Source: a virus | Length of the DNA stretch: 64,000 bases | IMG/VR virus record: IMGVR_UViG_3300017991_000052 | Direction: 5' to 3' (one strand) | Shown here: positions 4,728 to 55,381 of the stretch, in pieces | How positions within the stretch are numbered: the stretch's first letter is position 1 | Layout: the number at the start of each line of letters is the position of its first letter | The notes under the pieces: generated by a model | What the model was told of the DNA's origin: nothing | Seen by the model: the letters and a program-made list of their open reading frames with translations, nothing else | Databases searched by the model: none | Made by a program: the position numbers and the translations under genes

Positions 4728-5022
4728 TATTAATATTAAATGTGATGAATGTAATGAAACTTTAGAAAATGATGACAAGGTTTTTTGTTATAAATGTTTT
4801 AAAGAATATGCAGAAAAAATAGAAGAATTAGAAGAACAAGTAGAAGAGTTAGAAAAAGAAGTTGCTCAAGTAAGATCAGAAGTTGAAGATGAAGAATATG
4901 AAAAATATCAATTGCAAGAAGAATATGAAAAATTAGAATCAAAATATGAAGAATTAACAATTGATTATGGACAATTAGAAAGAAGTTTAGAAAAAACGCA
5001 AATAGTAGATGAAAGTGTATAA
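4717..5022 (+). CDS. Zn-finger plus acidic coiled-coil protein; C-terminal tag IVDESV
   Basis: CDEC...CYKC, heptads; ends QIVDESV. Confidence 0.7.
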   Translation: MTIDINIKCDECNETLENDDKVFCYKCFKEYAEKIEELEEQVEELEKEVAQVRSEVEDEEYEKYQLQEEYEKLESKYEELTIDYGQLERSLEKTQIVDESV

Positions 5023-9722: not shown

Positions 9723-10290
9723 AAAAGAAATAGCTTTTATTTATAATTCTAATAAAATAGAACAGATTATGTATCCCCTTAAGGAATATTCTAAAGATCC
9801 AGATAAATCAGATCCTCATGTTGGGGGGCATATAAAAGCATTTTTATATATGAAAGAGAATTGTAAAAAAGATTTAACTGAAAAAGATATTCTTATAATG
9901 CATAGGCTTTTAACAAAGGATATTTTACGTCCAAAAGACAGCGGTGCATATAGAACTTGTGCTGTTTATATTAGCGGCAGACAAGCTCCTATGTATTATT
10001 CTGTAAAACCAATGATGGAAACTTTAATAGAATTTGCAAAAAGAGTTGGTTATGAGAATGATATATGGAATGTACATCATGAATTTGAAATTATTCATCC
10101 ATTTGTTGATGGGAATGGTAGAACTGGCCGTTTAATTCTTAATTGGCTTAGATTTAAAAATGATCTTCCATTAGAAATTGTTCTATATAAAGATAGAATG
10201 GAATACTATACATCTATTGAAAAATATAGAATAGGTAAAATAGTAAGTAAAAAATTGGGGGAATTGAATGGAGATAAGGCATTATATTGA
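9709..10290 (+). CDS. Fic-domain AMP transferase
   Basis: Canonical HPFVDGNGRTGR. Confidence 0.95.
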   Translation: MKLNKKEIAFIYNSNKIEQIMYPLKEYSKDPDKSDPHVGGHIKAFLYMKENCKKDLTEKDILIMHRLLTKDILRPKDSGAYRTCAVYISGRQAPMYYSVKPMMETLIEFAKRVGYENDIWNVHHEFEIIHPFVDGNGRTGRLILNWLRFKNDLPLEIVLYKDRMEYYTSIEKYRIGKIVSKKLGELNGDKALY

Positions 10291-10657
10291 TGATATAGAT
10301 GAAAAATTATTCTTTTCTAAAAAGAAAATTAAAGATGAATTTACTAGAATAGCGGCAAATTTATGGATTCAATTTGGTGTTGATTTAACAAAAAATAAAA
10401 CTGGTAAAAAATATAATGTGACAGATTTTATTTGGTCTACTAAAGCAAAAAAAAGATTTTATGAATTAAATTTTGATATAATTGATAAAATGAGAAAAAA
10501 ACAACAATATGGTTGGTTTATTTTACAAGTAGAACCAAAAGATGAAACAGCTAATGAAGCAAGAAATATATTTGAAGAAATAGAAGAAGAACAAAGAAAA
10601 TATTTAAAAAATAAAAAAAAGATAAATAAATATAAAATAACAGAAGAGAGTTTATGA
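10268..10657 (+). CDS. Hypothetical; C-terminal tag ITEESL
   Basis: ends YKITEESL. Confidence 0.7.
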   Translation: MEIRHYIDDIDEKLFFSKKKIKDEFTRIAANLWIQFGVDLTKNKTGKKYNVTDFIWSTKAKKRFYELNFDIIDKMRKKQQYGWFILQVEPKDETANEARNIFEEIEEEQRKYLKNKKKINKYKITEESL

Positions 10658-10995
10658 AAAAAAGAATTAGAAAAGAAAAAGATGTTTTTATTCTTCTTAA
10701 TGAAGATTATGCAAAAAGCATAAAAAAAATAATCAATAAAAAAATTAGACAATCTAATAGAACCTTAAGAAGAGATAGATTTTATCATGAAGAATTAAAT
10801 GAATTAATAGATAATAGAAAGTGGTCTTGGTTAAGAGAACGAAGAGTGACTCCGGAATATGATGGAGAATCTGTTAGTAGAGCACATAGAAGAATGTATG
10901 TACATGGGATAAATGATATTTTAAAGTGGTTAACAAATCAAATAGCATCTGATAAAGATATTGATGTTATTTCAATAAAAAACGAATCATTATAA
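10654..10995 (+). CDS. Hypothetical; C-terminal tag IKNESL
   Basis: ends ISIKNESL. Confidence 0.7.
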   Translation: MKKRIRKEKDVFILLNEDYAKSIKKIINKKIRQSNRTLRRDRFYHEELNELIDNRKWSWLRERRVTPEYDGESVSRAHRRMYVHGINDILKWLTNQIASDKDIDVISIKNESL

Positions 10996-12964: not shown

Positions 12965-13348
12965 ATGAAAAGATTAGTACAATATAGAATTTGGATTTAT
13001 GAAACAAAACAAATGATTCCACTTCCTCCAATTGGTGAAGAAAAATGTGATGGGCATAGAACTGGATATGCTTCTTATACTGGTAAGTATACAGATATGG
13101 AATGGTTACAAAATACTGGATTACAAGATAAAAATAATGAATATATATATGAAGGAGATATAGTTGAATATGAATTTATTGATGGGCATGGAATAGGGTA
13201 TATAGAATGGATAGATGAAAAAGCAAGATTTGTATGGATTGATATAAAAGATTGCGGAGATGGATATGGGATTCATCAACCAGATAAAAATAGAATGGAA
13301 ATATTAGGTAATATTTATGAACATCCTGAAATGTTAGAAGGAGCATAA
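12965..13348 (+). CDS. YopX-family protein
   Basis: QNTGLQDKNNEYIYEGDIV...EILGNIYEHPEML. Confidence 0.85.
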   Translation: MKRLVQYRIWIYETKQMIPLPPIGEEKCDGHRTGYASYTGKYTDMEWLQNTGLQDKNNEYIYEGDIVEYEFIDGHGIGYIEWIDEKARFVWIDIKDCGDGYGIHQPDKNRMEILGNIYEHPEMLEGA

Positions 13349-21426: not shown

Positions 21427-21642
21427 ATGGCGAATGTACGTTTCTACAGACTAGGCGGAGATCCAGTTGACACAGAAATCACAGAGAAGATGACAGTTAG
21501 AGCAGCACTGAAAAAGAGTGGAATCAAGTACCAAGAAGGTGATGAAATCCGGGTACAGAACAGCAAAGTTGATTTAGACACAATGATCACTCCTGATCAG
21601 GCACAGTTTGTTACTGCGATCCCGAAAGTACGAGGAGGTTAA
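21427..21642 (+). CDS. Ubiquitin-like (beta-grasp) protein with C-terminal GG
   Basis: 71 aa, TVRAAL, ends IPKVRGG; first gene of E2/JAB/E1 cluster. Confidence 0.85.
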   Translation: MANVRFYRLGGDPVDTEITEKMTVRAALKKSGIKYQEGDEIRVQNSKVDLDTMITPDQAQFVTAIPKVRGG

Positions 21643-21648
21643 TGAGGG

Positions 21649-21700
21649 TAATATATTGGGGGGGGTGGAACCCTTATTAGCACACCCCCTTAATATATTA
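21649..21700 (+). terminator. Stem-loop between Ubl and E2 genes
   Basis: TAATATATT+G-run pairs with C-run+AATATATTA; may attenuate or stabilise the Ubl transcript. Confidence 0.5.
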
Positions 21701-21716
21701 TAAAAAGGAGAAAAAT

Positions 21717-22337
21717 ATGGCAGTAAAGTTAAGTGAAGCAAAAGAACAAGAAAAATATGTTGAAATTTGTGCAATGAGGCATAAAGTTCAAGTTAAAAAT
21801 CTTAAAGAGAAATTAAAAAAAATTGAAAAAGAAACTGCAGATGCTAGTAAGCAATTAATGCTGTTTGTCCGCGCGGAATCTGATACTAGAGAACAACTTA
21901 ACGCGCTCGAGGAAGGCTTTGAAAAACATAAAAATAGATATCAAGAAGAATTTAAAGCTTTAAAAGCTTTAGAGAATTATGAACATATTGATATAACTGA
22001 AATACATGGAAAAGCAGCTCTAATTGGTTATACAGATGAAATTCAAATTGAACATGAAGGCGATATTTATAAAATTGGTAAATTTAGAGTTACAGTTCAA
22101 GATGCACAAATTTTAATTGAAAATATAACTAATAAGAGAAATGGATGTGATCATCCTCATGTTAGAGATGGTCGACCGTGTCTTGGGGATTTAGGCTCAA
22201 CTTTACCAAAATTAATGGGTAAGCATGAATACGCTTTAGTTTTTAATGTTGTTTATAAATACTTAACAAGTTATAATAAGCAAAGTCCTTATCAAAAAAT
22301 TGAAGCTTGGACAAAAAGCAGAAAGAAGGCAAAGTAA
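21717..22337 (+). CDS. Prokaryotic E2-like conjugating enzyme with N-terminal coiled coil
   Basis: HPHVRDGRPCLG matches the E2 HPN..G.ICL catalytic-Cys motif. Confidence 0.75.
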   Translation: MAVKLSEAKEQEKYVEICAMRHKVQVKNLKEKLKKIEKETADASKQLMLFVRAESDTREQLNALEEGFEKHKNRYQEEFKALKALENYEHIDITEIHGKAALIGYTDEIQIEHEGDIYKIGKFRVTVQDAQILIENITNKRNGCDHPHVRDGRPCLGDLGSTLPKLMGKHEYALVFNVVYKYLTSYNKQSPYQKIEAWTKSRKKAK

Positions 22338-22900
22338 TGTTACAAGTTATTTTTAAAGAAAAGGCTATTAAAAAAATTGAATATTTTACCCAATTGGCTC
22401 CAGGAGAAATTTCTGGATTAGGTAAAGTAGAAAAACAAGGTGATAAATTTATTATTGAAGATGTTTACTTACTTAAACAAACAAATTCTGCAGCTTATAC
22501 AGAATTAGATTCTGAAGCAATTAATGATTTTCTTATTGATATGATGAGTAAAGGAGAAGATCTTTCTAAGATAAAGTTATGGTGGCATACTCATGCTAAT
22601 TTTTCTGTTTTTTGGAGTGGGACAGACAAAGATACAATAGATAAATTTGCAAATGAATCTTATTTTATTTCTTTAGTAACAAACAAAGCTGGAGATTATA
22701 AAATTAGATTTGATTTTCACGCACCGGATAGACTGACATTTGATGATATTCCTCATGTAGTAGATTTTACAGATGATAATGATCTAAAAAGACAATGTGA
22801 AGAAGAATTTAATCAAAAAGTTAAAACTAGATTATATTGGGATGAACAGCCGCAATATGTTGAAAATAATGAACAAGAAATTGTGGAGCATGTAGTATAG
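22337..22900 (+). CDS. JAB/MPN metallo-isopeptidase
   Basis: GEISG; WWHTHANFSVFWSGTD (HxH..S..D). Confidence 0.85.
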   Translation: MLQVIFKEKAIKKIEYFTQLAPGEISGLGKVEKQGDKFIIEDVYLLKQTNSAAYTELDSEAINDFLIDMMSKGEDLSKIKLWWHTHANFSVFWSGTDKDTIDKFANESYFISLVTNKAGDYKIRFDFHAPDRLTFDDIPHVVDFTDDNDLKRQCEEEFNQKVKTRLYWDEQPQYVENNEQEIVEHVV

Positions 22901-22918
22901 CGGTAAAGGGGTTAAGCA

Positions 22919-23584
22919 ATGTCAGATGCACAAAGATTTTGGAGACAATTAGATATTGTCGATAGTGATAAATTAAATATCCCAATTACTATTATTGGAG
23001 CCGGCGCAATTGGATCATTTACTTGTTTAGCATTAGCTAAAATGGGATGTTCTAATATTACAGTATATGATATTGATAAAATTGAAGATTATAATCTACC
23101 AAATCAATTTTATAGAGAAAGTGATGTTGGTAAATTAAAAGTAAATGGGCTTTATGATCTTATAAAAGATTTTACTGGAGTTAAAATAAATATTAAAAAT
23201 GAAAAATATAAAAAACAAAATGTTGAAGGAATAGTTATATCTGCAGTTGATAATATGGAAACAAGAAAAGATTTATGGAAAAAAGTTGAATATAATCCTC
23301 AAGTAAAATTATTTGTAGATGGACGCATGGGCGCAGAAGTCATGAGAATTTATACTGTAAAACCTCATGATATAGATGAAGTAAAGATATTTGAAGATAA
23401 TTTATATACCGATAAAGAAGCTGCAGAAGAAAAATGTACAGAAAAAGCAATTATATATAATGTAACTGTAATAGGAGGTTTAATTGCTTCTAATATTAAG
23501 AAATATGTAATGGATCAAAAATATATAAAAGAAATAATATTTGATTTAAAAAATCTATATTTATTAGCGAGTGAAACAAAATAA
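22919..23584 (+). CDS. ThiF/E1-like activating enzyme
   Basis: RFWRQ, IIGAGAIGS, YDID..NLPNQ, AVDN..R, DGRMG, candidate Cys in EKCTEK. Confidence 0.9.
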   Translation: MSDAQRFWRQLDIVDSDKLNIPITIIGAGAIGSFTCLALAKMGCSNITVYDIDKIEDYNLPNQFYRESDVGKLKVNGLYDLIKDFTGVKINIKNEKYKKQNVEGIVISAVDNMETRKDLWKKVEYNPQVKLFVDGRMGAEVMRIYTVKPHDIDEVKIFEDNLYTDKEAAEEKCTEKAIIYNVTVIGGLIASNIKKYVMDQKYIKEIIFDLKNLYLLASETK

Positions 23585-23918
23585 TGTTATGTCTAAAAAT
23601 AAAAAACTTGATAATGTATTACTTGAAATAGCGAAAAAAAAGGAGCTAATTGCAAAGATAAACACAATTAATTATAATAGTTTTGAGAAAGATGCTTCTA
23701 AAGTTATAGATATTCTTCCTCAATTGACTAATAATGATGATTTTAAAGTATTAAATGTGTTTAATGTTGATAAAAAAGTACAGTATAAAAAATATAGCTT
23801 ATATAAGAAATTTAATATATTTATGTATATTGAAGGATTTAAAAGGGCTTTAGAAATAATGGGTGAAACTTTTATTAGTGATGCAATAAAAGATGATTTA
23901 TATGAACAATCAATATGA
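23571..23918 (+). CDS. Hypothetical; C-terminal tag LYEQSI
   Basis: Between E1 and clpC, overlapping neighbours. Confidence 0.65.
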   Translation: MKQNNVMSKNKKLDNVLLEIAKKKELIAKINTINYNSFEKDASKVIDILPQLTNNDDFKVLNVFNVDKKVQYKKYSLYKKFNIFMYIEGFKRALEIMGETFISDAIKDDLYEQSI

Positions 23919-24184
23919 GTGATTATGTAATTGGGATTTTAAGTAATGAATTAGATAAATTAAAAACAATAGCATCACGACTTGAGGGCGAATTAACAGA
24001 ACATGAAGTATATGCTAATCAAACGAGGGATAGTTTAATATTAATAAGGCAAGCTATTAAAGAAATTGAAGATGAATTAAAAGGAGAATATATAGAACTT
24101 AACGAAGGAGTATCACCGATATCGTTACTTAAAATAAGTGAAATTATAAGAAAAGAAAATAATATATCGGAGGAAAGTTTATGA
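23915..24184 (+). CDS. Coiled-coil protein; C-terminal tag ISEESL
   Basis: ATGA overlap with clpC start. Confidence 0.7.
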   Translation: MSDYVIGILSNELDKLKTIASRLEGELTEHEVYANQTRDSLILIRQAIKEIEDELKGEYIELNEGVSPISLLKISEIIRKENNISEESL

Positions 24185-26712
24185 GTTTATGTCAAGAATG
24201 CGGTAGAAATGAAGCTCAATATACTGCAATTTTTAATGTTAATGGCCAAGATATTCAAAAGCCAGTATGTGAACAATGTTATAATAAACTTCAATTAAGT
24301 GTTGATGACGCCACAAAAGAAGTATATCATAAATTAAGCGAATCTACAAAATTAGTAATTTATTATGCTCGCAGACAAGCAAGAGAACGAAGACATAAAT
24401 TTGTTTTAAATGATCATTTAGTTTATGGTATAATTTTAGAGAATGGAACTGGATATTCGACATTAGAAAGTGCTGGAGCAAATGTTGACCAATTAAAAGG
24501 GCAAATTGATTGGGCTTTAAATTCAGTTACTGATCTAGTACCTAGAAATAGTGGAGAAGAGCCTCAATTATCAGATGAAATAAAAGGCACTTTAAAAAGA
24601 TCTCTTGAGATTATTAATAAAATAGAATTTCCAGAAATAGAACCTGAACACATATTATTATCTATTACAGAAGATAGAAATTCAGCAATATCTAAAAATT
24701 TAAAAAGAAATTTTAATATTGATACAATAAAACTTTTAAGAGAATTAGAATCTCAATTACCAGAGTCAGTAGATCTCGTTAAAAAATATAAAGAAAATGA
24801 TATTAAAAAATCTGCTTTAGAAAAATATAGTAGAGATTTAACTAAATTGGCTAAAATGGATAAACTAGATCCATGTATTGGTCGAGCAGATGAAATAGAA
24901 CGAGTTGTACATATACTATCAAGAAGAAGAAAAAATAATCCAGTGCTTGTAGGAGAAGCTGGAGTTGGTAAAACAGCTATTGTTGAAGGATTAGCAAGAA
25001 GAATTGTTGAAGCTGATGTACCAGCTTGTTTATTAACTAAAAGATTATTAGCTTTAGATTTAAATGCTATGTTAGCAGGAACTCGCTTTAGAGGTGAATT
25101 TGAAGAAAGAATTAAAAAAGTAATTGATGAAGTTAAAGCTAAAAGTGGAGAGATCATATTATTCATTGATGAATTACATAATTTAATTGGAGCTGGTGCT
25201 GGCGGCGGTCAAGGTATGGATGCTGCTAATATTTTAAAACCAGAACTTGCTCGCGGTGAATTACAATGTATTGGAGCAACAACTCATGATGAATATAGTA
25301 TGTATATTGAACATGATAAAGCTCTAGAAAGACGTTTTCAATTAGTTGAGGTTATTGAACCATCAGTTTCAGAAGCTAAACAAATATTACATGGAGTACA
25401 AGATCGTTATGCAAATTATCATCATGTTAAAATAAATAAAGATGCGATAGATGCTGCAGTTGATTTATCAGTTAAATATATTTCAAATAGATATTTACCC
25501 GATAAAGCAATTGATCTTATGGACGAAGCAGGAGCAAAAGTAAAATTAACAGCTCAAAAATTACCTAAAGAAATAATTGAATTAAAGAAAGAAATAATTA
25601 AAAGTAAAAGAGAAAAAAAAGATGTTACTAAACAAGAAGTTGAAGCTAAAAAGTTAATGGATGAATGGAGAGAAAAAAATAATAAATTATCTCTTATAGT
25701 TAATAAAAATGATATTGCTATGGTAGTAAGTAAATGGACAAAGATACCAGTAACAGATTTAATAAAAGAAGAAAAAATAAAATTATTGCATTTAGAAGAT
25801 AAATTACATGAAAAAGTTGTTGGTCAAGATCAAGCAATTAAATCTTTATGTAATGCTATAAGAAGAGCAAGAGTTGGGATTAAAGATCCCAAAAGACCAA
25901 TTGGTTCTTTCATATTTGCTGGTAAGACTGGTGTAGGTAAAACATTAATAGCTAGAACTCTTGCTGAATACTTATTTGGGTCACCAGAACACTTTATAAA
26001 GATCGATATGTCTGAATATATGGAGAAACATACAGTATCAAGATTAATTGGCGCTCCGCCTGGATATGTAGGTTATGATCAAGGTGGACAATTAGTTGAA
26101 CATGTAAGAAAACATCCTTATACAGTTATATTATTAGATGAAGTAGAAAAAGCTCATCCAGATATATTTAATGTTCTTTTACAAGTTATGGAAGATGGTG
26201 TATTAACAGATGGAAGGGCAAGAAAAGCAGATTGTAGAAATGCTATTATAATTATGACTACAAATATTAGTGCAACTCAAAGAGATTATCATATTGGATT
26301 TAATAGTACAAACATTGAAACAGAAGAAGAATATGAGAAATTAAAATCTACTCAAGAAAAGGCTTTAAAAAATCATTTTAAACCTGAATTTTTAAATCGT
26401 GTAGATGATATTATTGTATTTCATAACCTTAATAAAACTCATATGACTTATATAGTTGATTTAATGATCAAAGAATTGGCAGAAAGAATGAAAGAACAAG
26501 AATTGAAATTACAAATTAATAAAGAAGTAAAAGAATTATTAGTAAAAGAAGGCTTTAATAAAGAATATGGAGCAAGATCTTTAAGAAGATATATAGTAAA
26601 GAAAATTGAAAATCCTTTGGCTGAAGAATTGTTAACTGATAAATTTAAGCCAAAAGATACAATTATTGTTAAAAAAGAAAAAGAAGATATTCTATTTGAT
26701 ATAGAAAAATAA
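24181..26712 (+). CDS. clpC: ClpC-type AAA+ unfoldase with N-terminal CxxC...CxxC finger
   Basis: Clp-N repeats, GEAGVGKT, FIDELH, GKTGVGKT, LLDEVEKAH, IGF loop. Confidence 0.92.
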   Translation: MSLCQECGRNEAQYTAIFNVNGQDIQKPVCEQCYNKLQLSVDDATKEVYHKLSESTKLVIYYARRQARERRHKFVLNDHLVYGIILENGTGYSTLESAGANVDQLKGQIDWALNSVTDLVPRNSGEEPQLSDEIKGTLKRSLEIINKIEFPEIEPEHILLSITEDRNSAISKNLKRNFNIDTIKLLRELESQLPESVDLVKKYKENDIKKSALEKYSRDLTKLAKMDKLDPCIGRADEIERVVHILSRRRKNNPVLVGEAGVGKTAIVEGLARRIVEADVPACLLTKRLLALDLNAMLAGTRFRGEFEERIKKVIDEVKAKSGEIILFIDELHNLIGAGAGGGQGMDAANILKPELARGELQCIGATTHDEYSMYIEHDKALERRFQLVEVIEPSVSEAKQILHGVQDRYANYHHVKINKDAIDAAVDLSVKYISNRYLPDKAIDLMDEAGAKVKLTAQKLPKEIIELKKEIIKSKREKKDVTKQEVEAKKLMDEWREKNNKLSLIVNKNDIAMVVSKWTKIPVTDLIKEEKIKLLHLEDKLHEKVVGQDQAIKSLCNAIRRARVGIKDPKRPIGSFIFAGKTGVGKTLIARTLAEYLFGSPEHFIKIDMSEYMEKHTVSRLIGAPPGYVGYDQGGQLVEHVRKHPYTVILLDEVEKAHPDIFNVLLQVMEDGVLTDGRARKADCRNAIIIMTTNISATQRDYHIGFNSTNIETEEEYEKLKSTQEKALKNHFKPEFLNRVDDIIVFHNLNKTHMTYIVDLMIKELAERMKEQELKLQINKEVKELLVKEGFNKEYGARSLRRYIVKKIENPLAEELLTDKFKPKDTIIVKKEKEDILFDIEK

Positions 26713-26845: not shown

Positions 26846-26974
26846 ATGATCAATGGAGAAAATCACACTATTGGAGGAAGAAATAAACAGGATATTGAAG
26901 ATTCTCATAAATATTTAGTAAAAAGATTAAGAAAATATTATGAGTCTAAAATATTTTTTGAACAAACTTTATGA
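26846..26974 (+). CDS. Small ORF after clpC ending in tag variant FFEQTL (frame open from 26705; true start uncertain)
   Basis: ATGA overlap with 26971; ends SKIFFEQTL. Confidence 0.5.
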   Translation: MINGENHTIGGRNKQDIEDSHKYLVKRLRKYYESKIFFEQTL

Positions 26975-40012: not shown

Positions 40013-40375
40013 ATGGAATTTATAGAAGTAAAAAAAGAAGAGGAAATGGAATTAGAGGGAATTATTATAAGACCAATAATAGAGAAAGGTAAAACAAAAT
40101 CATTATTTTTAAAAGATGCTAATGGTAAATCATATAAAATTAATGGTGAATATTCTGAGTTGTCAATATTAAAACCTAAACCAATTATTGTCAATAGACA
40201 TGTTTTAATAGTTTCATTAAATAAAGATATAAAAAGGGAATTTGAGTTCGATACGATTGAAGAAGCTGAATCAAAACAGAGAGAATTAGAGAGAAAATAC
40301 CCAAATGATTCATTATCATTTGAAATTGTCGATAAAAAAGTAGAGACAAATACGGTGATCGATGAGGCAATCTGA
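40013..40375 (+). CDS. Hypothetical; tag variant VIDEAI
   Basis: ends NTVIDEAI. Confidence 0.65.
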   Translation: MEFIEVKKEEEMELEGIIIRPIIEKGKTKSLFLKDANGKSYKINGEYSELSILKPKPIIVNRHVLIVSLNKDIKREFEFDTIEEAESKQRELERKYPNDSLSFEIVDKKVETNTVIDEAI

Positions 40376-42321: not shown

Positions 42322-42828
42322 GTGCCAAGACAATTAAAAATAGATGAATTAAATATAGGCAAGCAAGTATTACAATTATATAATAATGGTATGAGTGCTA
42401 ATAAGATCGCGGAACAATTAAATGTAAATCCAATAAATGTAATTAATTTTATAGAGAAGACAGATGAGAATACACAGAAATTGGTAAAACGAGAGGATAA
42501 GATGGCTAAAGAGAATCTTATGCAGGCTCTTAATCTTCATGAGAAGATGATCGAGAAGATCGAGGATATGGAAGAGTTATTAACTCAGATGAAGGAAGCT
42601 GATGGTAAGGTAGTCGAGCGCAGATCTAAAGATTATATATCCGCATGGAATAGTATAATGAGTACGCTTCAATGGTGGACTGACAGAAAGATAAAGTTAT
42701 TAGAGACTATGGAGAATCAGATCTTTAGAAATGCTATCCTCGAGGCGATCAAGGGGGAGTCGCCCGAGGTGGCATCCAAGATAAGGTCTATAATAGAGCA
42801 GAAGAGAAAAGATCTTGGATTAATATGA
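42322..42828 (+). CDS. HTH plus helical protein (small-terminase-like architecture possible)
   Basis: LYNNGMSANKIAEQLNV HTH; helical remainder. Confidence 0.45.
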   Translation: MPRQLKIDELNIGKQVLQLYNNGMSANKIAEQLNVNPINVINFIEKTDENTQKLVKREDKMAKENLMQALNLHEKMIEKIEDMEELLTQMKEADGKVVERRSKDYISAWNSIMSTLQWWTDRKIKLLETMENQIFRNAILEAIKGESPEVASKIRSIIEQKRKDLGLI

Positions 42829-43647
42829 TATATAAAATAAAAGATGATGAGTATTATAGGGGGCTCAAAGAGACATGGGATTGGGAATATGATAGATTAT
42901 ACAATTGGGAAAGATTAAGAAGCTATGAGGTAAAGGATGAGAGTCTCTAAGATAAAGTCGTATGAAGGAAGAGTATTAATAAAGAAAGAAAAGATAATAG
43001 ATTGTTGGGGGTGCCCCCATATAGAACACGAAACGGGTAATAGATTTTATACATGTAAAATAACTGGTAAAGTGATACACAGATGGAAAGCTAAAGATGA
43101 TTGCAAAACATGGGGGTCAAATGAAATACATGTATTTATTCCTAAGACATGTCCTTTACCAAAAGAAATAGAAGATGAGAGTGTATGAAAATTGAACATG
43201 CAAACCCCCTAAGTATTTATGATGAGCTTAATCATTGGAAGCTTCAATATGAGATGACTGCTAAAGAAAGAAATGAATTAGAATTAAAAGTAGCCGCATT
43301 TCAAGATAGATATTATGAAGTATGTTATGAGTTAAGGAAATATGTAAGTGATTATAAATTTAAATATTGGGATGAAGCTTCTTATAGGGCATGGTTAAAT
43401 AGAGATATGGAAATAAATATAAATGAAGAAAGCATATGAATGAAACAATTATTATATCCCCAACAGAAGCTGAAGCATTAAAGAGTTATGCATCTTTTCG
43501 ATCTTCGGCATTAAGAGTTGGCAGAATAGAAAATGAAATAGGAAGTTTATATGGAGTAAAAGTGATAGTAAGCAGATATATTGGGGATCAAGTAGTGGAT
43601 ACTAAAATGCATGATTTTAATATAGTGAATGAAAGTATATAAGAGTA

Positions 43648-43676
43648 TTTATGAAGAATAAAAAATATGATATAAT
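43648..43676 (+). promoter_or_regulatory. Sigma70-like promoter, extended -10
   Basis: TTTATG-N17(TG)-TATAAT. Confidence 0.55.
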
Positions 43677-44338
43677 ATAACGATGCTAAGTCACGAAGAA
43701 GTGGTACTACGGTACTTTAATAAATTAGTATATAAATTAGATCATATTTTAAAAGATGGAGATAGTTCTACATATAAAACTGTAATGAGAGCTTTTATGA
43801 GATGCCATGGAGAATCATGGACTGAAACACAAGAATTCCTAAAAAATACAACTATCACAGATCAAAGTATATAAGGGGGAATAAATATGGGGAAGAAAAA
43901 AGATGTGTCAAAGCTATTTGCCAATGCTTTCACAAAGTATGATCAGATTCAAGGACAGCCTGCACATATACAAGCTAATATGCCAACAAAAATAATGGAA
44001 GAAAGTGAAGCTTTAATGAAAGCTCATCAAAGTCGTTTATATCCAGAAAAAGCAGGTAAAAGAGTAAGAGATGAAAAATTAGCGGCTGAAGAACAATTCA
44101 GACAATTCATAAGATCATTGACGATCGATGAAGTAGAGAACTTAAAACTATTAAGAAGTAAGCCAAGCTTAGTTGTCGATACAAATGCTTTACAGAAAGC
44201 AGGAGAATTAGGGGAAGATCTTGGGCTTGAAAGATTAGAAGCAAATAAGCTTATTAAGAGAGAATTAATTCCCGATGATAATCTTATAGAGTTCAGAATA
44301 ACTAATAAAGGCAGAGCGGTATTGGAGGAATTGAGATT

Positions 44339-44941
44339 ATGAGGAAATTGCCCCCTCAAAATAAGATAATTAGATTATTAAACTTTACTGAAGATCAGAA
44401 GAATAGAGTACGTAATGCTTTAAGTAAAGTACCACCGCAATTCGTAAAGAAAGCTTTTTCAAAAATAGTTTTAGATGGAGCTTTAGCTAAAGAACCAGGG
44501 AAGCACGAGAATTTTGGTAAATATAATATGGATACTAAAGTATTAAGAGTGAACCCCAAAGTATTCGATCAATCAGAGAAATTCACCGATGGAGTAAATT
44601 ATATGAGTAAGTTAGCTCATATGTTATTACATGAAATTGGGCATGCTTTAGATAATATTTATAATTTATCTAATTCTGAAGTATGGCATAGTTTAAGTGG
44701 ATGGTCGACGACTCCTTCTCATTCAAAAAGATATTTGAAGATCCCCCATGAAAAAGATAGAGATATGTTATGGTATTATAATCCAAAAAGCAAATTCGCA
44801 AGATGGTATGCAAAAAGATCCCCTCAAGATGATTGGGCAGAATCATTTGCATTTTATCTTGGGGGTCTGCTTGATAGAGTAGACAGAAGTAAGATCAAAT
44901 ATATAAAAGAAGTATTATCTCAAATAAATGATATTAGTTAG
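44339..44941 (+). CDS. Zincin HExxH metallopeptidase
   Basis: LLHEIGHALD...YA..SPQDDWAESFAFY. Confidence 0.75.
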   Translation: MRKLPPQNKIIRLLNFTEDQKNRVRNALSKVPPQFVKKAFSKIVLDGALAKEPGKHENFGKYNMDTKVLRVNPKVFDQSEKFTDGVNYMSKLAHMLLHEIGHALDNIYNLSNSEVWHSLSGWSTTPSHSKRYLKIPHEKDRDMLWYYNPKSKFARWYAKRSPQDDWAESFAFYLGGLLDRVDRSKIKYIKEVLSQINDIS

Positions 44942-45611
44942 AAAATGTAATGAATTAATTAAAGATGAGATAATAGAAGATGCAATGATAATGCTTGAAA
45001 AAGCAGAAGATTGTAAGATAAATAAAACTAAGTTAATATTTTTTGCGGGAAGTACGATACAAAAGAAATTAAAAGAAGAATGTCGACGACAAAATATGGC
45101 AATTGCGAGTTCTACAGCAGTAGTATATTATGATGAGAATGAGATATTTAGAGTTGCTGGAGTAAAGATAATAAAGGGGTATGAGGAATATTTAGGGCTT
45201 GATGAATTGTGTCTTGTAGATGAGTTATGTGTCAGCGGAATGGGTAATAAAGATATAAGACTAGCGAGGTATTATGTGGCCGATGAATCTCTTTAGATTT
45301 AGAGCTAATGAAGAAGAGGAAGAAGATATAGAGTTGTCAGAAGAAGAACTCGCGAGAATAGATGAGGATATGAATGATGCTCCAAGAGAACTTTATTATC
45401 GAGATGAGCAAGCACCGCAAGGTGGGACAGGAGAAGTAGAGTTGGATAATACATATCCAGATACTGCTGATAATTATAGAAGCGATTCAATAGAGATGTT
45501 AAATACGAAAGTAGACAGTCTAGAAATTTCAGTTGCTGAAATACATTGTCAATTAATGCGACTTGTAGAACTATTAGATAAATGCGGGATAGGAGTCCCC
45601 AATGAAAGTTT

Positions 45612-45860
45612 ATGAATAGTTGGGAAAAAGAATTTATGAAGGAGAGTCAAGGCAAAGGAATACTTCCCTGTCCTTTTTGTAAAAGTACAAGAGTAATAGA
45701 AGAGCCTTTGAATTGGATGATCTTAAGAAAACGACCGCATCAGTGTCAAGTAAGATGTTTAGATTGTAGAGCTCATGGACCAATTATGAAGGGATATCAA
45801 AGAGACGCGATATGGGCATGGAATAGTGCTTATCGAAGAATAGAGGATGAAAGTTTATAA
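45612..45860 (+). CDS. Lar-like (restriction alleviation) Zn-finger protein; tag IEDESL
   Basis: LPCPFCKS...VRCLDCRAHGP...AIWAWN. Confidence 0.7.
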   Translation: MNSWEKEFMKESQGKGILPCPFCKSTRVIEEPLNWMILRKRPHQCQVRCLDCRAHGPIMKGYQRDAIWAWNSAYRRIEDESL

Positions 45861-46565
45861 GGAGGTAAAGTAATGAAAGATAGAGTAGAAATAGTAAGAA
45901 ATAATGGGGTTGTATTTAATTCAGAGAATACTATAATAAGAATAAACGGGAGACAAGTAAATGGAGTAACACACTTCGCTATATATGATAGTTCTAATAG
46001 GGCAGATGCTGATAGGGGTCCGTACGCGGATCCCCATTTATTTATTACAGCGCGGTTAGGGGCTAATGATCGACCATTAAAACATTTCTTTAATCCAGAC
46101 AATATAGATTTTGATAACATAGTAATGTATGATCGCAATCATGTCGAGAATAGAAATATAGGGAGAGGGCAAGAAGATAATACATATATTGAATCAATAA
46201 GAGTCCATAAAAGAAATATAAGATTAGACTTAAAGATGAAAACGGAAGTTCAAGAAGAATTATTTGCGGAGAGTATATAATGGCATTTGCATATGGTAAT
46301 GGACAAATATTAGGGCATGCTATTGGGAACATTGTTGAAGGTGATGCTGTAGAGGTATCATTAGACGAGAATGGACTTATAAGGACTATTAGTATTGGAT
46401 CAGGAGGAGCTGGAGGTGGAGGATCTGGAGCTGGTGGTGCTGCATATGTAAGCATAGAAGAGTTAGAGAATAACGCAAAAGAAAGGGCAGAAAAATACTT
46501 TAATAATATGAATAAAAGTGTTATAATATCTGATGATATTAAAGATAAACAAGTGAAGGTGTTAG

Positions 46566-46739
46566 ATGAACCCCTTTAATTTTAAAAAGAGTTCATATGG
46601 ATATGAGTGGAAGATCATTACTCAGTACTTCAAATTCCCGAAGCGCAAAAAGAAGCGTAAGAAAAGAAAAGTGGTTCATAAGCCAGCTATAGTAAAGAAA
46701 TATAGTAAGCGATTTGAGATATTAGACGAAACAATATGA
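46566..46739 (+). CDS. Basic 57-aa protein (not in track); tag variant ILDETI
   Basis: MNPFNFK...KRFEILDETI; ATGA overlap with 46736. Confidence 0.65.
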   Translation: MNPFNFKKSSYGYEWKIITQYFKFPKRKKKRKKRKVVHKPAIVKKYSKRFEILDETI

Positions 46740-49254
46740 AGATACAGCTTGCAATTAGTTTATCTGATATATCAATGTATCTTTATTGGATATGTATAGG
46801 GCTTTATTGTTGGATGATATTTAAAGAGCGAAAGAATCGTAAAAAAGAAAGAGAATTTATTGCACAAATACAAAGGGATACTCAAAGGCGAATGGAAGAG
46901 TTTATAAAAGCAGAAAAAGAATTCCAAAGGAAATTAAAAGTAAAAACATTACAAGTTGAATATTATAAGAAAAAATGCAAACATGAAATAGTTAATGAAA
47001 GTTTATAATGGAGGGGTTTTTTACTGCTGAAAATATCAGCAATTTATTAAACATAAGTCTTTTATTGTGGATATTTATTTTAGCAGCAAAGTTAGGATAT
47101 ACTTTATATGAGGCTAGTAAAGAAGAACGCAATGAGAGAAATAGAATATTGGAAGCCCGAATTTTTGCATCAATGCATCCGAATGGGGAACTTCGTAAAT
47201 ATATACATGTCAAGAAGAAGGGAAAGAAAAGAAGAAAAAAGAAAATTAAGATCAATGTAAAGAAGTCGTTATACAAAGAAAAAGACGAAGTGGAGATAAT
47301 GAATGAATCTCTCTGAAGGAGCAGTAAATGTATTAATAATATTCTCTGGTACTATAAGCGCTGTTGTGATATGTGTGATAGCAATGTGGTTAGGAAGATG
47401 GTTAGCTGATAGAGAAGATCGACAATTTATGATGACTACTACATCGACTGCTATTGGGGATCTTCATAATGATCGAATAAGTAGGGAACAAATGGAAAGT
47501 GAAATGGTTCGAGCAAGGGAAGAGATGAGAAGGGCTCATGAAGAGCAAAGACAAATGATGCATGAAACGCGCAGACAAATGTATCTTTATAATGAATCGC
47601 TTCAATCACAACAAAGAGCAGCAATTAGTCCAAGGATTGCAGAGGCACAACAAATAAATAGAACTGCGTTATTGGAAGCGGTTGGAGCAAATATAAATAT
47701 AGATGATATGCGATCTGCATTAGAAAGTTTAGAAAGAAGTTTAAGTTTACCAGATATAATAGCATCAAAGCCATCTAAAAAAGAAATCGAGAAAAAGATA
47801 AATAAGTATGAGTTACAAGATGAGAGTATATGATATTAAAAAAGATACAATTATTAAAAAAAATATATAGGAAGAAGCTTAATAATCTTGATGAGAAAAA
47901 AGAATTGTCTTTACAAGATGCGAAAGAGATAATTGATATATTAGAAAATGATTTAAATGATCAAGTTAATGAAGAAGCAAAATATACAGAGCATGAAGTA
48001 ATGATGGAGAGTATATGACAAAATATACAAAAGAAGATTTGCCAAGAATAGCTTATGGTTCAAGAGAGATAACGATAACAAGGGCCGATTATGCTAATTT
48101 ATTACATACCATTGTTCAATTATTACATTTACATAAATTTAACGGTGAAGGTCAATTGGAAATAAAATATAGAGCAGATAATTTTTTAGATTCTGGTCTT
48201 ACTTTATTAAGTAAAACAAAACCAATTTATGAAAGTATATGATATATTGGAAGATTCCCCCACAAAAAGAAATAATGGTTAAATCAGATAAGATGCTTAT
48301 TCATTTAGAAGAAATAACATTAGATGTACCCAAAGATATTTTATTAAAGGTTGGTGATAGATATATAAAAGCTAAGCAATTAACGGAAGTGAGGGAAGTA
48401 AATGAATAATGATCCAATATTTGATTTAATTGAGACTGAGGTGGAAATACCTATAGATGATTATTTTAAGAAATGGAAAGAGTTACATTTAACTGATGTG
48501 GCTGAATGGTGCAACAATCAAAAAGATGATTTTACTGATGTATTATCATTCTTTACAGAACATTATCGTTTAGAGAGAATGATGGCATCATTAAAAGAAT
48601 TGGAGATCATAGATGAAAGTATTTAAAAGAATAGTTGAGCGTAAAATGACTGTATTACATTCTGATGTTGCAATGTTATTTTTGTTATTAAGATTATTTG
48701 AGGTATTTGATACACCTTATGATAAGTTGATATTTATAATACTTCTTATTTTCTTTTAATATGGCTATAGAAGTACGCTATGTGAATATTAAAAATTTAA
48801 ATGTAAGTAATGCTGCTTTTGTACGACAAGATAGTAATGGGAGAATGATACGTTTAGATAATGACCCCACTACTATTTATTTAGATCTATCATTATCATT
48901 AGAGACAAGAGATGATATTAATTGTATTGATCTTACAAAAAGAATACATGATATATTAAGAAATTATTTGAATAAAGAACAAATTGGGGGAATTGAAATT
49001 GAGGAAGAAAGTTTGTAGAACCTGTGTAATTTTCGGAGTTATAGTTATATTATTGTGGGTAGGATGTGGTAAGACTTCTAAGGAAGTTGGTATCGACACA
49101 CCAGATAGATTATTGGAAGATTTTCCAACTAAAGATATTGTATATGAGAGAATAACTGAAGATATTACAGAAGATAAAGATCAAAAAGAAAAAAAGGAAA
49201 AGCCAACTAAAGATGAAAAAGGAAAAGATAAGAAAAATAAATGAGAGTGATTAT

Positions 49255-49377
49255 ATGCCAGAATCTCCAATATCATCGCAATCGATGTTGAATATTGTGA
49301 GAGCAGTAAATACTCTCATAGATGAAAGAGATAAAAGAATAGTAGATTATTATGAAGTAGAAGATGAGTCATTATGA
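49255..49377 (+). CDS. 40-aa protein (not in track); tag VEDESL
   Basis: MPESPISSQ...DYYEVEDESL; ATGA overlap with 49374. Confidence 0.65.
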   Translation: MPESPISSQSMLNIVRAVNTLIDERDKRIVDYYEVEDESL

Positions 49378-49658
49378 ATAAAATAAGATTATTAAAAAGA
49401 TTAAGAGAAAAGACGGGGCTCGGGTTAAAAGATGCTAAAGACATTATTGATGATCTATTTGAGTGTGTTGATGGGGATAATAAATTAACCCCTCAATATG
49501 TTGATATGATTGTGGAAAATCATAATCATCTTCAAGCATTAGCACGCGATATAAATGATGTTGAAAGACAATTAAAGAGATTAACATCAAAGATGAAGCT
49601 TCTTACATCACATATAAGAAACGGGAGATCATTAATAATAGAGAATGAAAGTATGTAA
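49374..49658 (+). CDS. Ribosomal L7/L12 C-terminal-like domain plus coiled coil; tag IENESM
   Basis: KIRLLKRLREKTGLGLKDAKDIID. Confidence 0.7.
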   Translation: MNKIRLLKRLREKTGLGLKDAKDIIDDLFECVDGDNKLTPQYVDMIVENHNHLQALARDINDVERQLKRLTSKMKLLTSHIRNGRSLIIENESM

Positions 49659-52600
49659 GAAATAAGGGGGCGCAGCTATGCATATTAGTAAAAATGATAT
49701 TGAATTATTACGCGAAGAATATGAGAGAGAAAAGAATATATTAGAACAAAGAGAATCTCTTAATAGAGAATTATATGATCTAGAAAAGATTAGATCTTTT
49801 AATCCCCTATCTGAAAATGCTTCTTATTTATATGCTGATAATAATACTGGGGTAGATGAGAATGCATGGAGAAATTTAAGAGAAGAATTAGAGAGATATC
49901 GACAAGATAATCAAGTAACTCCGTGGCGATCCCCAACAGATGTACCTTATAATCCTTATACTCCCCAAACTCCAGTAACCCCATGGGAAGAAGGTTATGG
50001 ACGAACAGTAATAACAAAATCAACAGATGAATTAATATTAGAAGAGCTTGCATCTATTAGAAAATTATTAGAAAAAATCGCTGAAGGATTTGATGTAAAA
50101 ATAAGAGATGAATCATTATGAGTTCAAATGATATTGGGGAATATATGCTTGCAAATAATAGTAGTGATATAACTATTAATCTCCCTTATGATCCTGAGAT
50201 AAATAATTTAAGAGTTAATTATATGCAAACACCACCGCAAAATGGGAATTTGCATTATAATGAAAGTAATGGACAAATGGGAGTATGGACGGGACAAGAT
50301 TGGCAGCCATTAGAAAGTAATGGAAGTAGTGGAGGAACAACTAGTTTTACTTTATGGTCAGAATACGATGAGATCAAAAAAGAGATACAAGAATTAAAAT
50401 CTATGTTGAAGCAGGTGTTAGATCAGTGCGGCGTAATAATAAAGGACGAGTCCCTGTAAAAAGAAGACGTAAGATCTGGGTAGGATGGTGGGTCTTATTT
50501 TGGTCAATCTTTTTTACTATATTAATATTAATAATAATAAATGTCTTAACTAGTACATTAGTGATGACAATAAGAAAACATTATGTATTGAATATAACGA
50601 CTGAATCAGAATCTTCTTTATTGGCGATACATGGGCGCATCGAAAAATTATCAATACATCAAATAGAATTACAAAATCAAATAACTAAATTACAAAGAAG
50701 AACTTATTATTTAGAAAGAAAAGTAAAAGATTATGAAAAAAGGTAGAATATATAGTGTAGATTCAGATGCTGATCTAATTATCTTTCAATTCGATAAAAT
50801 AGATGTACATACATTAGAATCTTTTAAGATAGCATTAAGAGCGATTATTCCTGAAAGGTTAAAGAACAAATTACTTTTTTTAGCTAATACAAAGTTTAAT
50901 TTATATCAGTTTAAAGAAGGAAAGTTTTTTAACGAAAGTTTATGAGATATATAGAAAAATATTCAAGTCATATACCAATTGATGGAGTAACCCTTAGAGA
51001 TATAAGACGGATGATAAGAGATGCGCGTAGAGAAGAGATAGATCGTTCTAAATTAGTATTTTGTTTAGGGTATGAACTAGAAGAAAGTATATCAGCATTG
51101 TTTGGATCTGGAACATTTACACAAAAACAATTAGGGATCCCAGAGCCGCCATTGCCTTATCAAGTTGGGGCAATATGGGGAATAGCAGTAACTCAACCTC
51201 CCAATATAGATAATGATACTGTACTATTAACTAAATTAGAAGATTATTTAAGTGTCTACGGCAGTGAAAGTGTGCCTGATGAGAGTATATAATGAACGAA
51301 TTAAGTATAATGTATGGATGGGGGATCATCGAGAACAGATGTATTGGGAGAACCTTCCTAAAAAAGAAAAGTTATGGAGATGTTTTATTAACAGACTTCC
51401 AAAACATTCATTCCCTGATCTATCAATTTTAGAATTATTAATATTGGTACAAAGTTTAGAAGATCTAGATGAGCATATGGAATGGAAAGATATAGAAAAG
51501 CGAAAGGAGGAAAGGTATGACTCAAAAGCCATCGAAAGAAGAAGCAATAGGGAAAGCATTAGCGGCACTAGTTAATCTTTTTATAATATCTCCATTGTTA
51601 TTTATGTGGTTATACAACATGATATTAGTCCCTAAATTTAGCTTACCAAGATTCAGTTATTTAGAGTCTATGGGGCTCATTTTTATTTTCAGAACAATAC
51701 TTAAATAAAAGTTCAAAAATAGGGTAATAATTATATAAGTAGAAGAGGAGTGAAAGTAATGTCAGAAGCAAATATTGACATGCCTATCGAAAGACTTAGG
51801 CGTGCTGTAGTGAATCCAAGAAAGAAATTTTCAATTAGTATTGAACAAATGAGTGGTGGATTTTTAGTAATAAGTAAGTATGATAAGAAAAGATTTTGTA
51901 AGAATTTTACTGAAATAGTTAATGCAGTTAATGAAAGCTTGAGAGAATATTTTAAAAGTGAAGAGATCAAAGAAGGTGAAAGTATATGAGTTATAGTGAA
52001 CCAATGATGGATGAAGTGAGGGAAGCGGAACCAATGGAGCCAAGATGGAATACAGCTAGCGCATTCCCAGAAGATCGACCTAACTATAATAATTTTAATA
52101 TAAGAATAGAAAAAATAGAGAACGGATATTTATTAAATCCAAATTCTCACGATAGAGAATATTTTAATTCATTAGATACTCTATTTGAAGAAGCAAAATC
52201 GCGAGCAATAAATTCTTTTTTAAGAATCAACGATGGGTAGAACAGCAAGAAGAATGCATTTAGCTGATACAAGAGTTGAAGCTTCATCTGCACAACTTGC
52301 ATATATTGATTCAAATTTATTTACTAATGGGGATCTCAGTATTGTTAGTGATAATAATTTTTCTAGTAATTTAACTATTGATGCAGATGTCCTTATTAAA
52401 GGAAAAAAGCTTGATGATTATATATTAGAAGTTGTAAAGGAACATATGAAAGATTTATGTTTTACCAACATTTTGGACGAGAGCATTTAAATTATAGTGT
52501 TTTTACAGAGCTTGGAGAATGGCAAATTGGTAAAACAAAAGTCTTTCAAGATGTATATGATTGCTCGTTAACATATGAATTCGAATTTATATTAAATAAT

Positions 52601-52835
52601 ATAGATTTGAAGGTAAAAAATAGTGGTAATAGTTATAAATATGTAGGAAGAATGAAGGTAAATGAGGCTGATGTCATTACTTCCGACCGAAATCTTTCGG
52701 CTATAATAAGTGATACATTTTTAATGAATATGTATAAATTTAAGGAAGATATAGAAAACCAGGTATTTTATATAAAGAGTGATATGGTTTTCGAAAATAA
52801 ATTAAAAGAATACGGATTATTTATTGAAAGTATTT

Positions 52836-53797
52836 AGCCGAGGGAAAATTGAGACTCGACGGAGTTTCGTAGCTGTTGACGGGCAGCGATAAGGGTGTTA
52901 GCCAGACACTTGGGGAAAGTAAGTCATCTTGTGTTTTAAGCAAGAGATTTATTTTAGCGGAGTGAGAATATATGAGTTCTCGCGTGTAGGCAATACTTAA
53001 TTTTGACAATTTAATAACAACGGCTTGAGATCGCGGAGTGCAGACTCAATGTGATCAAATCCGCAGAACTGAAACTAATGTGGACAAGCTAGAGCCTCTA
53101 ACTAGGAAGAGGACAAAGTGTTTGGTAGTTTCGCTATAGAAAACTACCTCTCACTTAATGAGGTGCTTATCTACCATGTGTAGATAGAGCTTCAGACGAC
53201 TTTATTAGTGTGAAAGAATTTTTGCTAATTATAGATGCATTAATTCTTCAAATTAGATGAAGATGTCTGCAAAAGAGCTTAGGTTTCAATGAGCCCAGGT
53301 GCGATATAAAAGTTCAACTTATTGTCTTTATATAAAGTACAATTAGATTAACTGCTTAAATAGGGACGCCTAGCCTGTACTAATAATATCTTAATATGTT
53401 ATGGATTTAACCCTCCTGTCTGGGTAGCGAGGTTGGTAAGGGATCGGTCATAACATTTTGCGCTATCACGAAGTTTGACAATAACTAGTGACTGAACAAC
53501 TCGCTATGCAGGTGTAAGGTACATTTTGGACCATCGCCCTTGAGGTAACTCTTGGGAGAGAGATGGTTACCCAGGCCGATCCGGTGAGGGAAAAACAAAG
53601 TGGTTCCGTGGCCAATAGTAGCAATACTACGATTTTGACATTTGGATGATGTTGACAATTTAGATTACTACTGCAGACGGCCATCAAGTTGAAGGACCAT
53701 GTACTTGTACGTCTTGCTTGACCTTCGGATTCAATGGGGAGGAAGCTTTCTGTTGAAAAGGGGGGAATGGCGGTATGAGTATAATTCTTTCCTTTTT
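52836..53797 (+). ncRNA. Large (~900-950 nt) structured non-coding RNA candidate
   Basis: No credible ORF, raised GC, >12 nested hairpins including GNRA loops (see findings); boundaries approximate. Confidence 0.7.
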
Positions 53798-53893
53798 ATT
53801 GTCGAACTCGTACTTAAAATGAGTACAAACGTACTCAATATGAGAACATTGATATATAGGCCACCAGGAGAATATATTCTAGGAGGTTTTACC

Positions 53894-54346
53894 ATGATAA
53901 GGGATTTAGTTCCATTCAATAATGGAAGCTTATTTAATGAGTTCCAGAACGAATTCGCAAAAATGGAGAAACTGATGAATAATATATTCTCAGATTCTGG
54001 TTCGTTCTTAGGAGTAGGGAAAGCAACATTCCCAAAGTATAATCTTATCGAGACAGATAATGATTATGTAATTGAAGTTGCGGCAGCTGGGTTAGGTAAA
54101 GAAGATCTTGAAGTAAGAGTTGATGATAATAAGTTAGTTATTCGAGGCAAGAAAAAATCTAAATATGATAATGCAAAATATCATATTAGAGAGTTAGCAA
54201 GTCGATCATTTGAGAAGAGAATTAATCTTCCATCGATCATTGACAAAGACAAGATCAAAGCAAAATTTGAGGAAGGTATCTTAGAGATAAATCTTCCAAA
54301 GGCAGAGAAAAATGAAGGGTCAGTTAGGCAAGTAACAATTAAGTAA
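53894..54346 (+). CDS. Small heat-shock protein (Hsp20/alpha-crystallin)
   Basis: FPKYNLIET, AAAGLGKEDL, FEKRINLP, AKFEEGILEINLPK; ATG after AGGAGG. Confidence 0.92.
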   Translation: MIRDLVPFNNGSLFNEFQNEFAKMEKLMNNIFSDSGSFLGVGKATFPKYNLIETDNDYVIEVAAAGLGKEDLEVRVDDNKLVIRGKKKSKYDNAKYHIRELASRSFEKRINLPSIIDKDKIKAKFEEGILEINLPKAEKNEGSVRQVTIK

Positions 54347-55171: not shown

Positions 55172-55381
55172 ATGAAAAGAAAGATACTGACTAATATTAA
55201 TATAGATTATCATTGCAGAAAAGATGATAAATTTTATTCGATAAGGCCTGATATTCCAGTAATTGTGCCTGATTATGTATGTGATTATTTATTAAATAAT
55301 TATAGAAACAATATGATATTGCTGGAAAAAAATTTGCGGGATATAAAAATAAAAGAAGAAATATACAATCAGAGTTTATAA
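55172..55381 (+). CDS. Hypothetical; tag IYNQSL
   Basis: ends EEIYNQSL. Confidence 0.6.
   Translation: MKRKILTNINIDYHCRKDDKFYSIRPDIPVIVPDYVCDYLLNNYRNNMILLEKNLRDIKIKEEIYNQSL

Follow-up and report, generated by a model that had tools for sequence, protein, structure and literature searches.

A shared C-terminal peptide on diverse small proteins of a large uncultured phage, its candidate readers and its relation to known C-terminal handles

Short signals at the free C-terminus are used by several described systems. The C-terminal tripeptide ETV is a signal for ClpX/P in Streptococcus mutans and requires ClpX's zinc-binding domain, and VTL and AAL are further ClpX/P degrons of this bacterium (PMC10782952); ssrA and MuA have C-motifs of this kind, and the adaptor SspB is tethered to ClpX's zinc-binding domain by its own C-terminal XB tail (PMC8138137). 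Hydrophobic last residues reduce protein levels, possibly via degradation (PMC7246954), and in phage T4 the sliding clamp gp45 is the hub for an epitope present on gp43, gp55 and gp33 (PMC2988020). The present text deals with a 64,000-nucleotide stretch of viral DNA (IMG/VR record IMGVR_UViG_3300017991_000052, hereafter the window), in which dozens of small proteins end in one common peptide, here called the tag, and with the place of this tag among the systems mentioned.

The terminal motif and its distribution

The tag has the consensus [IVL]-x-[DEN]-E-S-[IL]-COOH and is present on 20–25% of the genes read (about a quarter of those in the window). Over the set of 144 genes used for the window statistics, 31 end in [EQ]S[ILVM], where 0.21 are expected (p = 3e-57), and with the wider pattern [EQ][STAP][ILVM]-stop the number is 35 against 0.68 expected (p = 7e-49). 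Within proteins the core tripeptide occurs at the background rate (32 times in 19,847 residues), that is, the motif is confined to the free C-terminus. A preliminary description of the window had proposed counting the terminal motif against expectation in this genome and its relatives, and the count gives a strong excess at true C-termini.

Most of these ends belong to a main array (42825..52837, + strand) of 36 small co-oriented open reading frames (ORFs), 27 of them tagged. The preliminary description had listed 26 tails in the array and eight outlying ones, all of which are recovered at their stops on the + strand, and had missed a 27th member, a called gene of 41 amino acids (aa) at 42825-42950 that ends in VKDESL. 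Tagged proteins measure 41–176 aa, whereas 33 of the 109 untagged genes encode more than 180 aa (p = 4e-5); none above 176 aa is tagged in the 84 kb of the phage's own genome that were read (the window and the next 20 kb, where two further tags occur on small ORFs).

With the last residue taken as position 0, two positions outside the selection criteria are constrained as well: the hydrophobic residue described at -5 is found in 33 of the 35 window tags (p = 2e-13), and residue -3 is D, N or E in 30. The hydrophobic preference reported at -7 is only weak (18 of 35, p = 0.03), and the six-residue motif, as first described, is not universal, given that Ser is replaced in four tails (by P at 46579, T at 46739 and 26974, and A at 40375) and the hydrophobic -5 residue is missing from two (48242 and 51989). 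Pooled over 73 tags of three genomes, -5 is I, V, L or F in 61 and -3 is D, E or N in 60; at the positions used for selection, E occupies -2 in 67, S occupies -1 in 65 and the last residue is I or L in 68.

The window comes from a large, AT-rich (30% GC) uncultured phage of approximately 180 kb, with 24 tRNAs and all long genes on the + strand, whose proteins recur on metagenome contigs of up to 180,493 bp. Its relatives were reached via homologues of the helix-turn-helix (HTH) gene directly upstream of the array and of a gene for a 151-aa protein inside it, which led to six other genomes. Two of them, G001 and L213, carry the tag. G001 is a complete virus (178,280 bp, approximately 36% GC) whose HTH, 151-aa and zincin genes are 42–45% identical to those of the window, and of which approximately 40 kb of DNA were read and the rest was probed by family and pattern searches; it has 12 tagged ORFs at the same place, the interval between zincin and Hsp20, and at least 12 elsewhere. 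In L213, with a core 52% identical, 12 tags lie within 8 kb. The sister clade (L102/103, L212 and L210) has none in 124 genes, the syntenic site included (Fisher p = 8e-12 over genes, which are not independent of genome), and in an unrooted tree these tag-less genomes all fall on the same side (77% support), so the difference possibly reflects a single evolutionary event. In L098 the 14 genes show one doubtful variant tail. Orthologous bodies are 24–43% identical and their order is shuffled, and the tag is retained; in the window, ORF 48239 is a shortened homologue, lacking the tag, of a gene that is tagged in L213. No tag array was found elsewhere in IMG/VR, where a DNA-pattern scan (tag plus ATGA) gave 22 single matches, none of them in such an array; scans of IMG/VR with one protein at a time, those of the sigma-like and E2 genes, yielded no relatives, and a GTDB scan gave one weak zincin match and identified no host.

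As to the level at which selection acts, the preliminary description argued for the peptide and against a DNA or RNA site, based on the use of both Ser codon families and of all three stop codons. Both observations were confirmed (Ser codons in the G001 tags are AGC in nine, AGT in five and TCN in seven, and codon choice follows genome GC), and selection on the peptide holds across relatives with different codon use and diverged bodies. Nucleotide information tracks codon position and falls after the stop, second codon positions are kept and wobble positions vary; repeat families at gene ends reach no more than a base or two past the tag codons, with no longer shared DNA repeat. The argument against the DNA level was slightly overstated, since GAG codons are over-used in the tags and AGY Ser codons occur in 25 of 33, compared with 45% in the tagged bodies (p = 3e-4), and the over-use of AGY implies that a DNA-level component exists. 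The main target of selection is the peptide, to which a mild preference for AGY codons is added; this preference would fit tags that serve at the same time as a purine-rich ribosome-binding region, or that are related by descent.

This bias also bears on the proposal that the tail is a translation-level signal, either as a by-product of the Shine-Dalgarno sequence and ATGA overlap of the next gene or as a nascent peptide by which termination and reinitiation are tuned. In agreement with it, the ATG of the next gene lies inside five tags, and stop/start coupling is found in 19 of 35 tagged against 39 of 112 untagged genes (p = 0.048). However, those 39 coupled untagged genes have different endings and no start codon is present at the stop of 16 of the 35 tagged genes, which means that the overlap is not the cause of the tag; besides, the choice of Ser codon family does not follow coupling (p = 0.22), gene ends share no longer repeat, and the genes of the sister clade are equally overlapped, yet have no tags. 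A translation-level explanation is for these reasons unlikely. Addition of the tags by tmRNA was rejected, as they are genome-encoded and no tmRNA was found, and promoter-like sites were at chance level.

Taken together, these observations establish with high confidence a clade-restricted, peptide-level, strictly terminal motif on diverse small accessory proteins.

Some further ends in the relatives were left uncounted: looser tails (V, N, E or G at -1, or D at -2) occur at L108:6317-6886, 12826-13245 and 14483-14671 and at L213:1713-1982 and 5513-5920, and include the ORF right after clpC in G001. In the sister clade, an N-terminal GF[VI]SNSS motif is common to small ORFs (8 of 124 genes; L212:6478-8238, L102:1697-2035 and 3373-3861, L210:19166-19988), which adjoin radical-SAM/SPASM genes in L102 and L212. 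This motif was not found in the C-tagged genomes read, and the N-terminal and C-terminal tag types look mutually exclusive in this small sample.

The array and the tagged proteins

A conserved block that marks the phage group (41439-42828 and 43887-44941) is formed by a sigma-like gene, the 168-aa HTH gene, the 151-aa unknown and the zincin. All ORFs described below lie on the + strand. After the 41-aa ORF come tagged ORFs of 83 aa (42937..43188, Cys-rich), 84 aa (43185..43439, with a tagged L213 orthologue of 43% body identity), 68 aa (43436..43642) and 63 aa (43683..43874), followed by two untagged clade-core genes (43887..44941), those of the 151-aa unknown and of a 200-aa HEXXH zincin, both present in tag-less relatives too. 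The array continues with ORFs of 122 aa (44928..45296) and approximately 110 aa (45274..45615, acidic and with a coiled coil), a Lar-family zinc-ribbon protein (45612..45860; PF14354, E 2e-7) in which the Lar domain spans residues 17-72 and the tag follows, and a 135-aa ORF (45873..46280) with tagged orthologues in G001 and L213 (27–30%). Two variant tags come next, one with Pro at -1 on a Gly-rich 99-aa protein (46280..46579) and one with Thr at -1 on a basic 57-aa protein (46566..46739), and then three tagged ORFs with hydrophobic N-terminal segments (46736-47008, 47008-47316 and 47303-47833).

Further along are tagged ORFs at 47830-48018 and 48015-48242, one of 74 aa with the exact consensus tail (48402..48626), one of 85 aa (48761..49018), and two within 49213..49658, the second of which (49374-49658) starts with an L7/L12-C-like helix pair (PF00542, E 3e-6). 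They are followed by 49678-50121, with a tagged G001 orthologue, 50118-50459, a 70-aa ORF with tagged orthologues in G001 and L213 (50733..50945), the 116-aa ORF 50942..51292 discussed below, an ORF with Gly at -3 and two tagged homologues in G001 (51750..51989), and 52233-52490 and 52457-52837; a spike-like reading of ORF 52233 was unsupported.

The outlying tags are found on a Zn-finger/coiled-coil ORF (4717..5022) with a similar tagged end in G001, as judged by eye; on two ORFs within 10268..10995, of which 10654-10995 has a tagged L213 orthologue; on two ORFs between E1 and clpC (23571..24184); and on a 69-aa ORF (55172..55381). Variant tags occur on a 120-aa ORF with Ala at -1 (40013..40375) and on an ORF directly after clpC (26846..26974; 42 aa from the first start at 26846, within an open frame of 89 codons starting at the clpC stop). 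The genome of this phage also has a Volactin/actin-family gene (L094:3072-4088) directly after a tagged 60-aa ORF, and a sheath-like gene and a portal lie downstream of the window.

Between the array and the Hsp20 gene (52840-53720), approximately 880 nucleotides without long ORFs and of higher GC constitute a candidate large non-coding RNA; the region folds better than shuffled sequences (z -3.7), and it has no Rfam family and no sequence match at the equivalent spot of G001, where an endonuclease gene sits.

The bodies were initially described as diverse, and they are indeed mostly unrelated, the exceptions being 47830 and 49374, which are weak paralogues (E 4e-4), and 43436 and 50942, which have a capsid-like segment in common. 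Pfam and PHROGs account for few of them and most are orphans; in the window the recognisable ones are the Lar zinc ribbon (whose protein has no homologues in a word-indexed protein search), the L7/L12-like helix pair, coiled coils and N-anchored membrane proteins, and in G001 tagged ends occur on a DUF559 nuclease, an HNH nuclease (variant tail) and a weak DUF932 match. Among the membrane ORFs, two that are N-anchored without positive charge before the anchor are tagged, and two with positive N-termini, whose C-terminus is probably outside, are untagged, numbers that are very small.

For ORF 50942-51292, an earlier single-sequence model was poor (predicted local distance difference test, pLDDT, 44); the better model (pLDDT 69) gave no Foldseek match at E<=0.001, and it aligns almost only to HK97-fold capsids and encapsulins, the best structural alignment having Z 6.5 and a root-mean-square deviation of 2.1 over 72 residues. 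In the Atlas its neighbours, both by feature and by structure, are major capsid proteins (TM 0.54–0.68). With Z below 8, the capsid reading rests on the uniform match list and its agreement with the Atlas neighbours; on the evidence of the model, the ORF is a stand-alone HK97 capsid A-domain-like protein. Judging from its sequence, ORF 43436 is probably a second body of this type, a weak fragment match (major head PHROG, E 0.1; leave-one-out E 1e-4). The same assignment for 44928, L099:12993, L099:14355 and L213:6168 was unconfirmed (leave-one-out profiles, E 0.1 or worse), and in G001 a 206-codon frame holds a further match to the capsid-A-domain-like profile (C1:68614-68844, E 2e-5).

A capsid domain among small accessory proteins invites the idea of virion loading, in which tagged proteins would be sorted into the head and ejected into the next host; the internal proteins of T4 are likewise small and accessory. 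The targeting signal of T4 is N-terminal, though, three tagged proteins have hydrophobic N-terminal anchors, homing-endonuclease-like genes of G001 carry the tail, and the genes read near the sheath-like and portal genes are untagged except for one 53-aa ORF. There is little likelihood that the tag serves this purpose.

Candidate readers and the proposed role of the tail

One shared cytoplasmic partner probably reads the tag. That a single receptor does so was proposed in the preliminary description and is a reasonable supposition. The foremost candidate is a ClpC-type Hsp100 (24181..26712, + strand) with an N-terminal Cys4 zinc finger, a Clp-N domain and an IGF loop of the ClpP-docking type, a loop shared by the ClpC of G001, which is 68% identical, compared with 42–45% for the HTH, 151-aa and zincin genes, and is the only AAA_5-type ATPase of that complete genome. 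Searches of complete G001 gave no match to ClpP, VWA_2, PDZ_2 (PF13180) or TPR_8 (PF13181), with one profile each for the last two, no MoxR in the AAA_5 search and no beta-clamp match (PF02767; gp45- and PCNA-type clamps were not searched). The zincin also occurs in relatives that lack the tag and, in tagged L213, does not adjoin the 151-aa gene, and the ubiquitin-like (Ubl) system is found in many tag-less viruses too. What remains is ClpC, Hsp20, some phage protein that is not recognised as such, or one of the host's own proteins.

It is a tentative possibility that a Clp unfoldase reads the tag and that the tail serves as degron or tether. The six C-terminal residues are a short linear motif, selected at the protein level, that needs a free C-terminus and marks fast-turning small accessory proteins; the reader would be a Clp/Hsp100 unfoldase working with host ClpP, either the phage zinc-finger ClpC or else host ClpX or ClpC. 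The tail would act as a C-degron that limits protein lifetime or, alternatively, as a tether with which each body brings its bound partner to the unfoldase. Such a role is predicted, as a best guess, from the likeness to ETV and from the ClpC context: clpC is directly preceded by a tagged gene in both the window and G001, and three of the eight outlying window tags flank it.

A number of observations weigh against a Clp reader. The adjacency to clpC goes back to a single inherited arrangement, not to repeated insertion, and is weak evidence; tags are not in excess at 80 other viral ClpC loci, nor in a 116-kb virus with ClpC and E2/JAB/E1, so the presence of a ClpC is by itself no predictor of the tag; and the L098 ClpC is 66–68% identical, yet only the doubtful tail mentioned above is found there. 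E1 (65% identical) is as conserved as ClpC, and conservation therefore does not single ClpC out. In addition, ETV itself is only marginally read by ClpC and mainly by ClpX (PMC10782952). A ClpC scan of IMG/VR retrieved only homologues of 39–50% identity, without tags, and the N-region of ClpC had no homologues in a word-indexed protein search. Co-folding of ClpC residues 1-195 with a 30-residue consensus tail scored 0.01, which is no evidence either way, the hexamer pore being outside the model. In L098 (1732-4260) a TGA stop close to the first Walker region interrupts clpC, which is either a real split or an assembly error.

Another way of accounting for a common tail is non-proteolytic docking, in which it would plug diverse bodies onto a different hub: an unrecognised phage protein, the groove of Hsp20 that binds IXI, or a host pocket of the PDZ, TPR or SSB-tail type. 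The Hsp20 gene (53699..54346, + strand) follows the array in the window and G001 and is absent from this position in three loci that lack the array, a hydrophobic pair occupies -7/-5 in many tails, and an acidic stretch followed by a hydrophobic free C-terminus is the pattern of the T4 clamp epitope (PMC2988020). On the other hand, the conservation of -7 is weak, IXI binding leaves the invariant terminal E-S-[IL] unexplained, complete G001 lacks the PDZ_2, TPR_8, vWA and beta-clamp matches referred to above, and the replication and transcription core proteins seen are all untagged, as is the sigma-like gene. Docking of this kind is possible but doubtful. A DNA methyltransferase of L098 (8570-9538) ends in QLSLF, a motif of the beta-clamp-binding type.

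Directly upstream of clpC lies a Ubl-E2-JAB-E1 operon (21427..23584, + strand), which has counterparts in many tag-less viruses, and the tail could be the recognition or acceptor site of this system. Two tagged genes directly follow E1 in the window and one does so in G001. Against this, 80 viral loci with a related E1 have no tag arrays, G001 excepted, and the conserved core of the tag contains neither Lys nor Gly-Gly, the tags ending in I, L, V or M; the idea is very improbable. The operon is conserved in G001 (L108:7881-10002) and partly in L098, related E1 genes occur in 325 IMG/VR stretches, and E2 and JAB were assigned by motif only, with no Pfam match. The window Ubl ends in Gly-Gly, whereas that of G001 has two extra residues after Gly-Gly and would need processing by JAB. 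A second, divergent ThiF/E1-like protein is encoded at 32113-32841 (24% identical to the L098 E1, E 1e-7).

The boldest extension of the Clp proposal, and an improbable one, is that the array is a library of modular degraders: the bodies would be baits, the tail would tether each bait and the host protein it captures to the zinc-finger ClpC, and host ClpP would destroy both. Bacterial sensors detect capsid and tail proteins by their core folds (bioRxiv 10.64898/2026.01.04.697583), so a tagged free capsid A-domain resembling the target of host immune sensors could act as bait and drag a sensor to ClpCP. This bait reading rests on one or two bodies.

Comparison with known systems

Most genes of large phages are small orphans without a functional handle, and a shared, conserved label at the terminus assigns roughly a fifth of them to a single pathway, which one peptide makes testable. 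If the reader were the phage ClpC, the outcome would be virus-encoded, tag-directed proteolysis and a new short degron; if the bodies were baits, it would be programmable counter-defence. The N-terminal tag of the sister clade contributes to the suggestion that a variable body plus a constant tag is a recurring design.

Class III PDZ ligands combine an acidic residue at -2 with a hydrophobic terminus, and the EEVD ligands of TPR domains on Hsp70/90 end in Asp. The tag fits the former pattern and differs from the latter, and complete G001 has no PDZ_2 or TPR_8 match.

The notion of shared terminal handles read by one hub is already known from T4 clamp epitopes, Clp degrons and adaptor tails. 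This motif, on dozens of orphans in an array, is undescribed in the literature searched, which left most subscription papers outside; there, in accordance with the preliminary description, neither the motif nor a comparable tag array was found. The T4 epitope resembles the tag in that interchangeable acidic-hydrophobic C-termini connect unrelated proteins to one hub (PMC2988020), but it concerns three core proteins, whereas the tag is found on dozens of orphan proteins, has another sequence and, in the profile search of G001 described above, is accompanied by no beta-clamp match.

Outside the tail, ORF 50942-51292 also aligns to PF0899 of Pyrococcus furiosus (PDB 2pk8, 94 residues; Z 5.7). Unlike PF0899 and the HK97-fold A-domains, this body carries the tag, and the likeness, with Z below 8, concerns only one or two bodies.

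With the degrons of S. mutans (PMC10782952) and with ssrA and MuA (PMC8138137) the tag shares its location at the free C-terminus, and its E-[ST]-hydrophobic end matches ETV; the ClpX reader of ETV uses a zinc-binding domain, and the phage ClpC also has one. In contrast to these degrons, the phage motif comprises six residues, with an added hydrophobic residue at -5 and an acidic one at -3, and labels 20–25% of the genes, in an array; the candidate ATPase is not ClpX but a phage-encoded two-ring ClpC, and degradation is here only predicted. The SspB adaptor likewise unites a variable substrate-binding body with a short C-terminal handle for a AAA+ protein (PMC8138137). While SspB and its kind are single host adaptors, the tagged proteins form a diverse phage-encoded library whose bodies would be putative binders of substrates.

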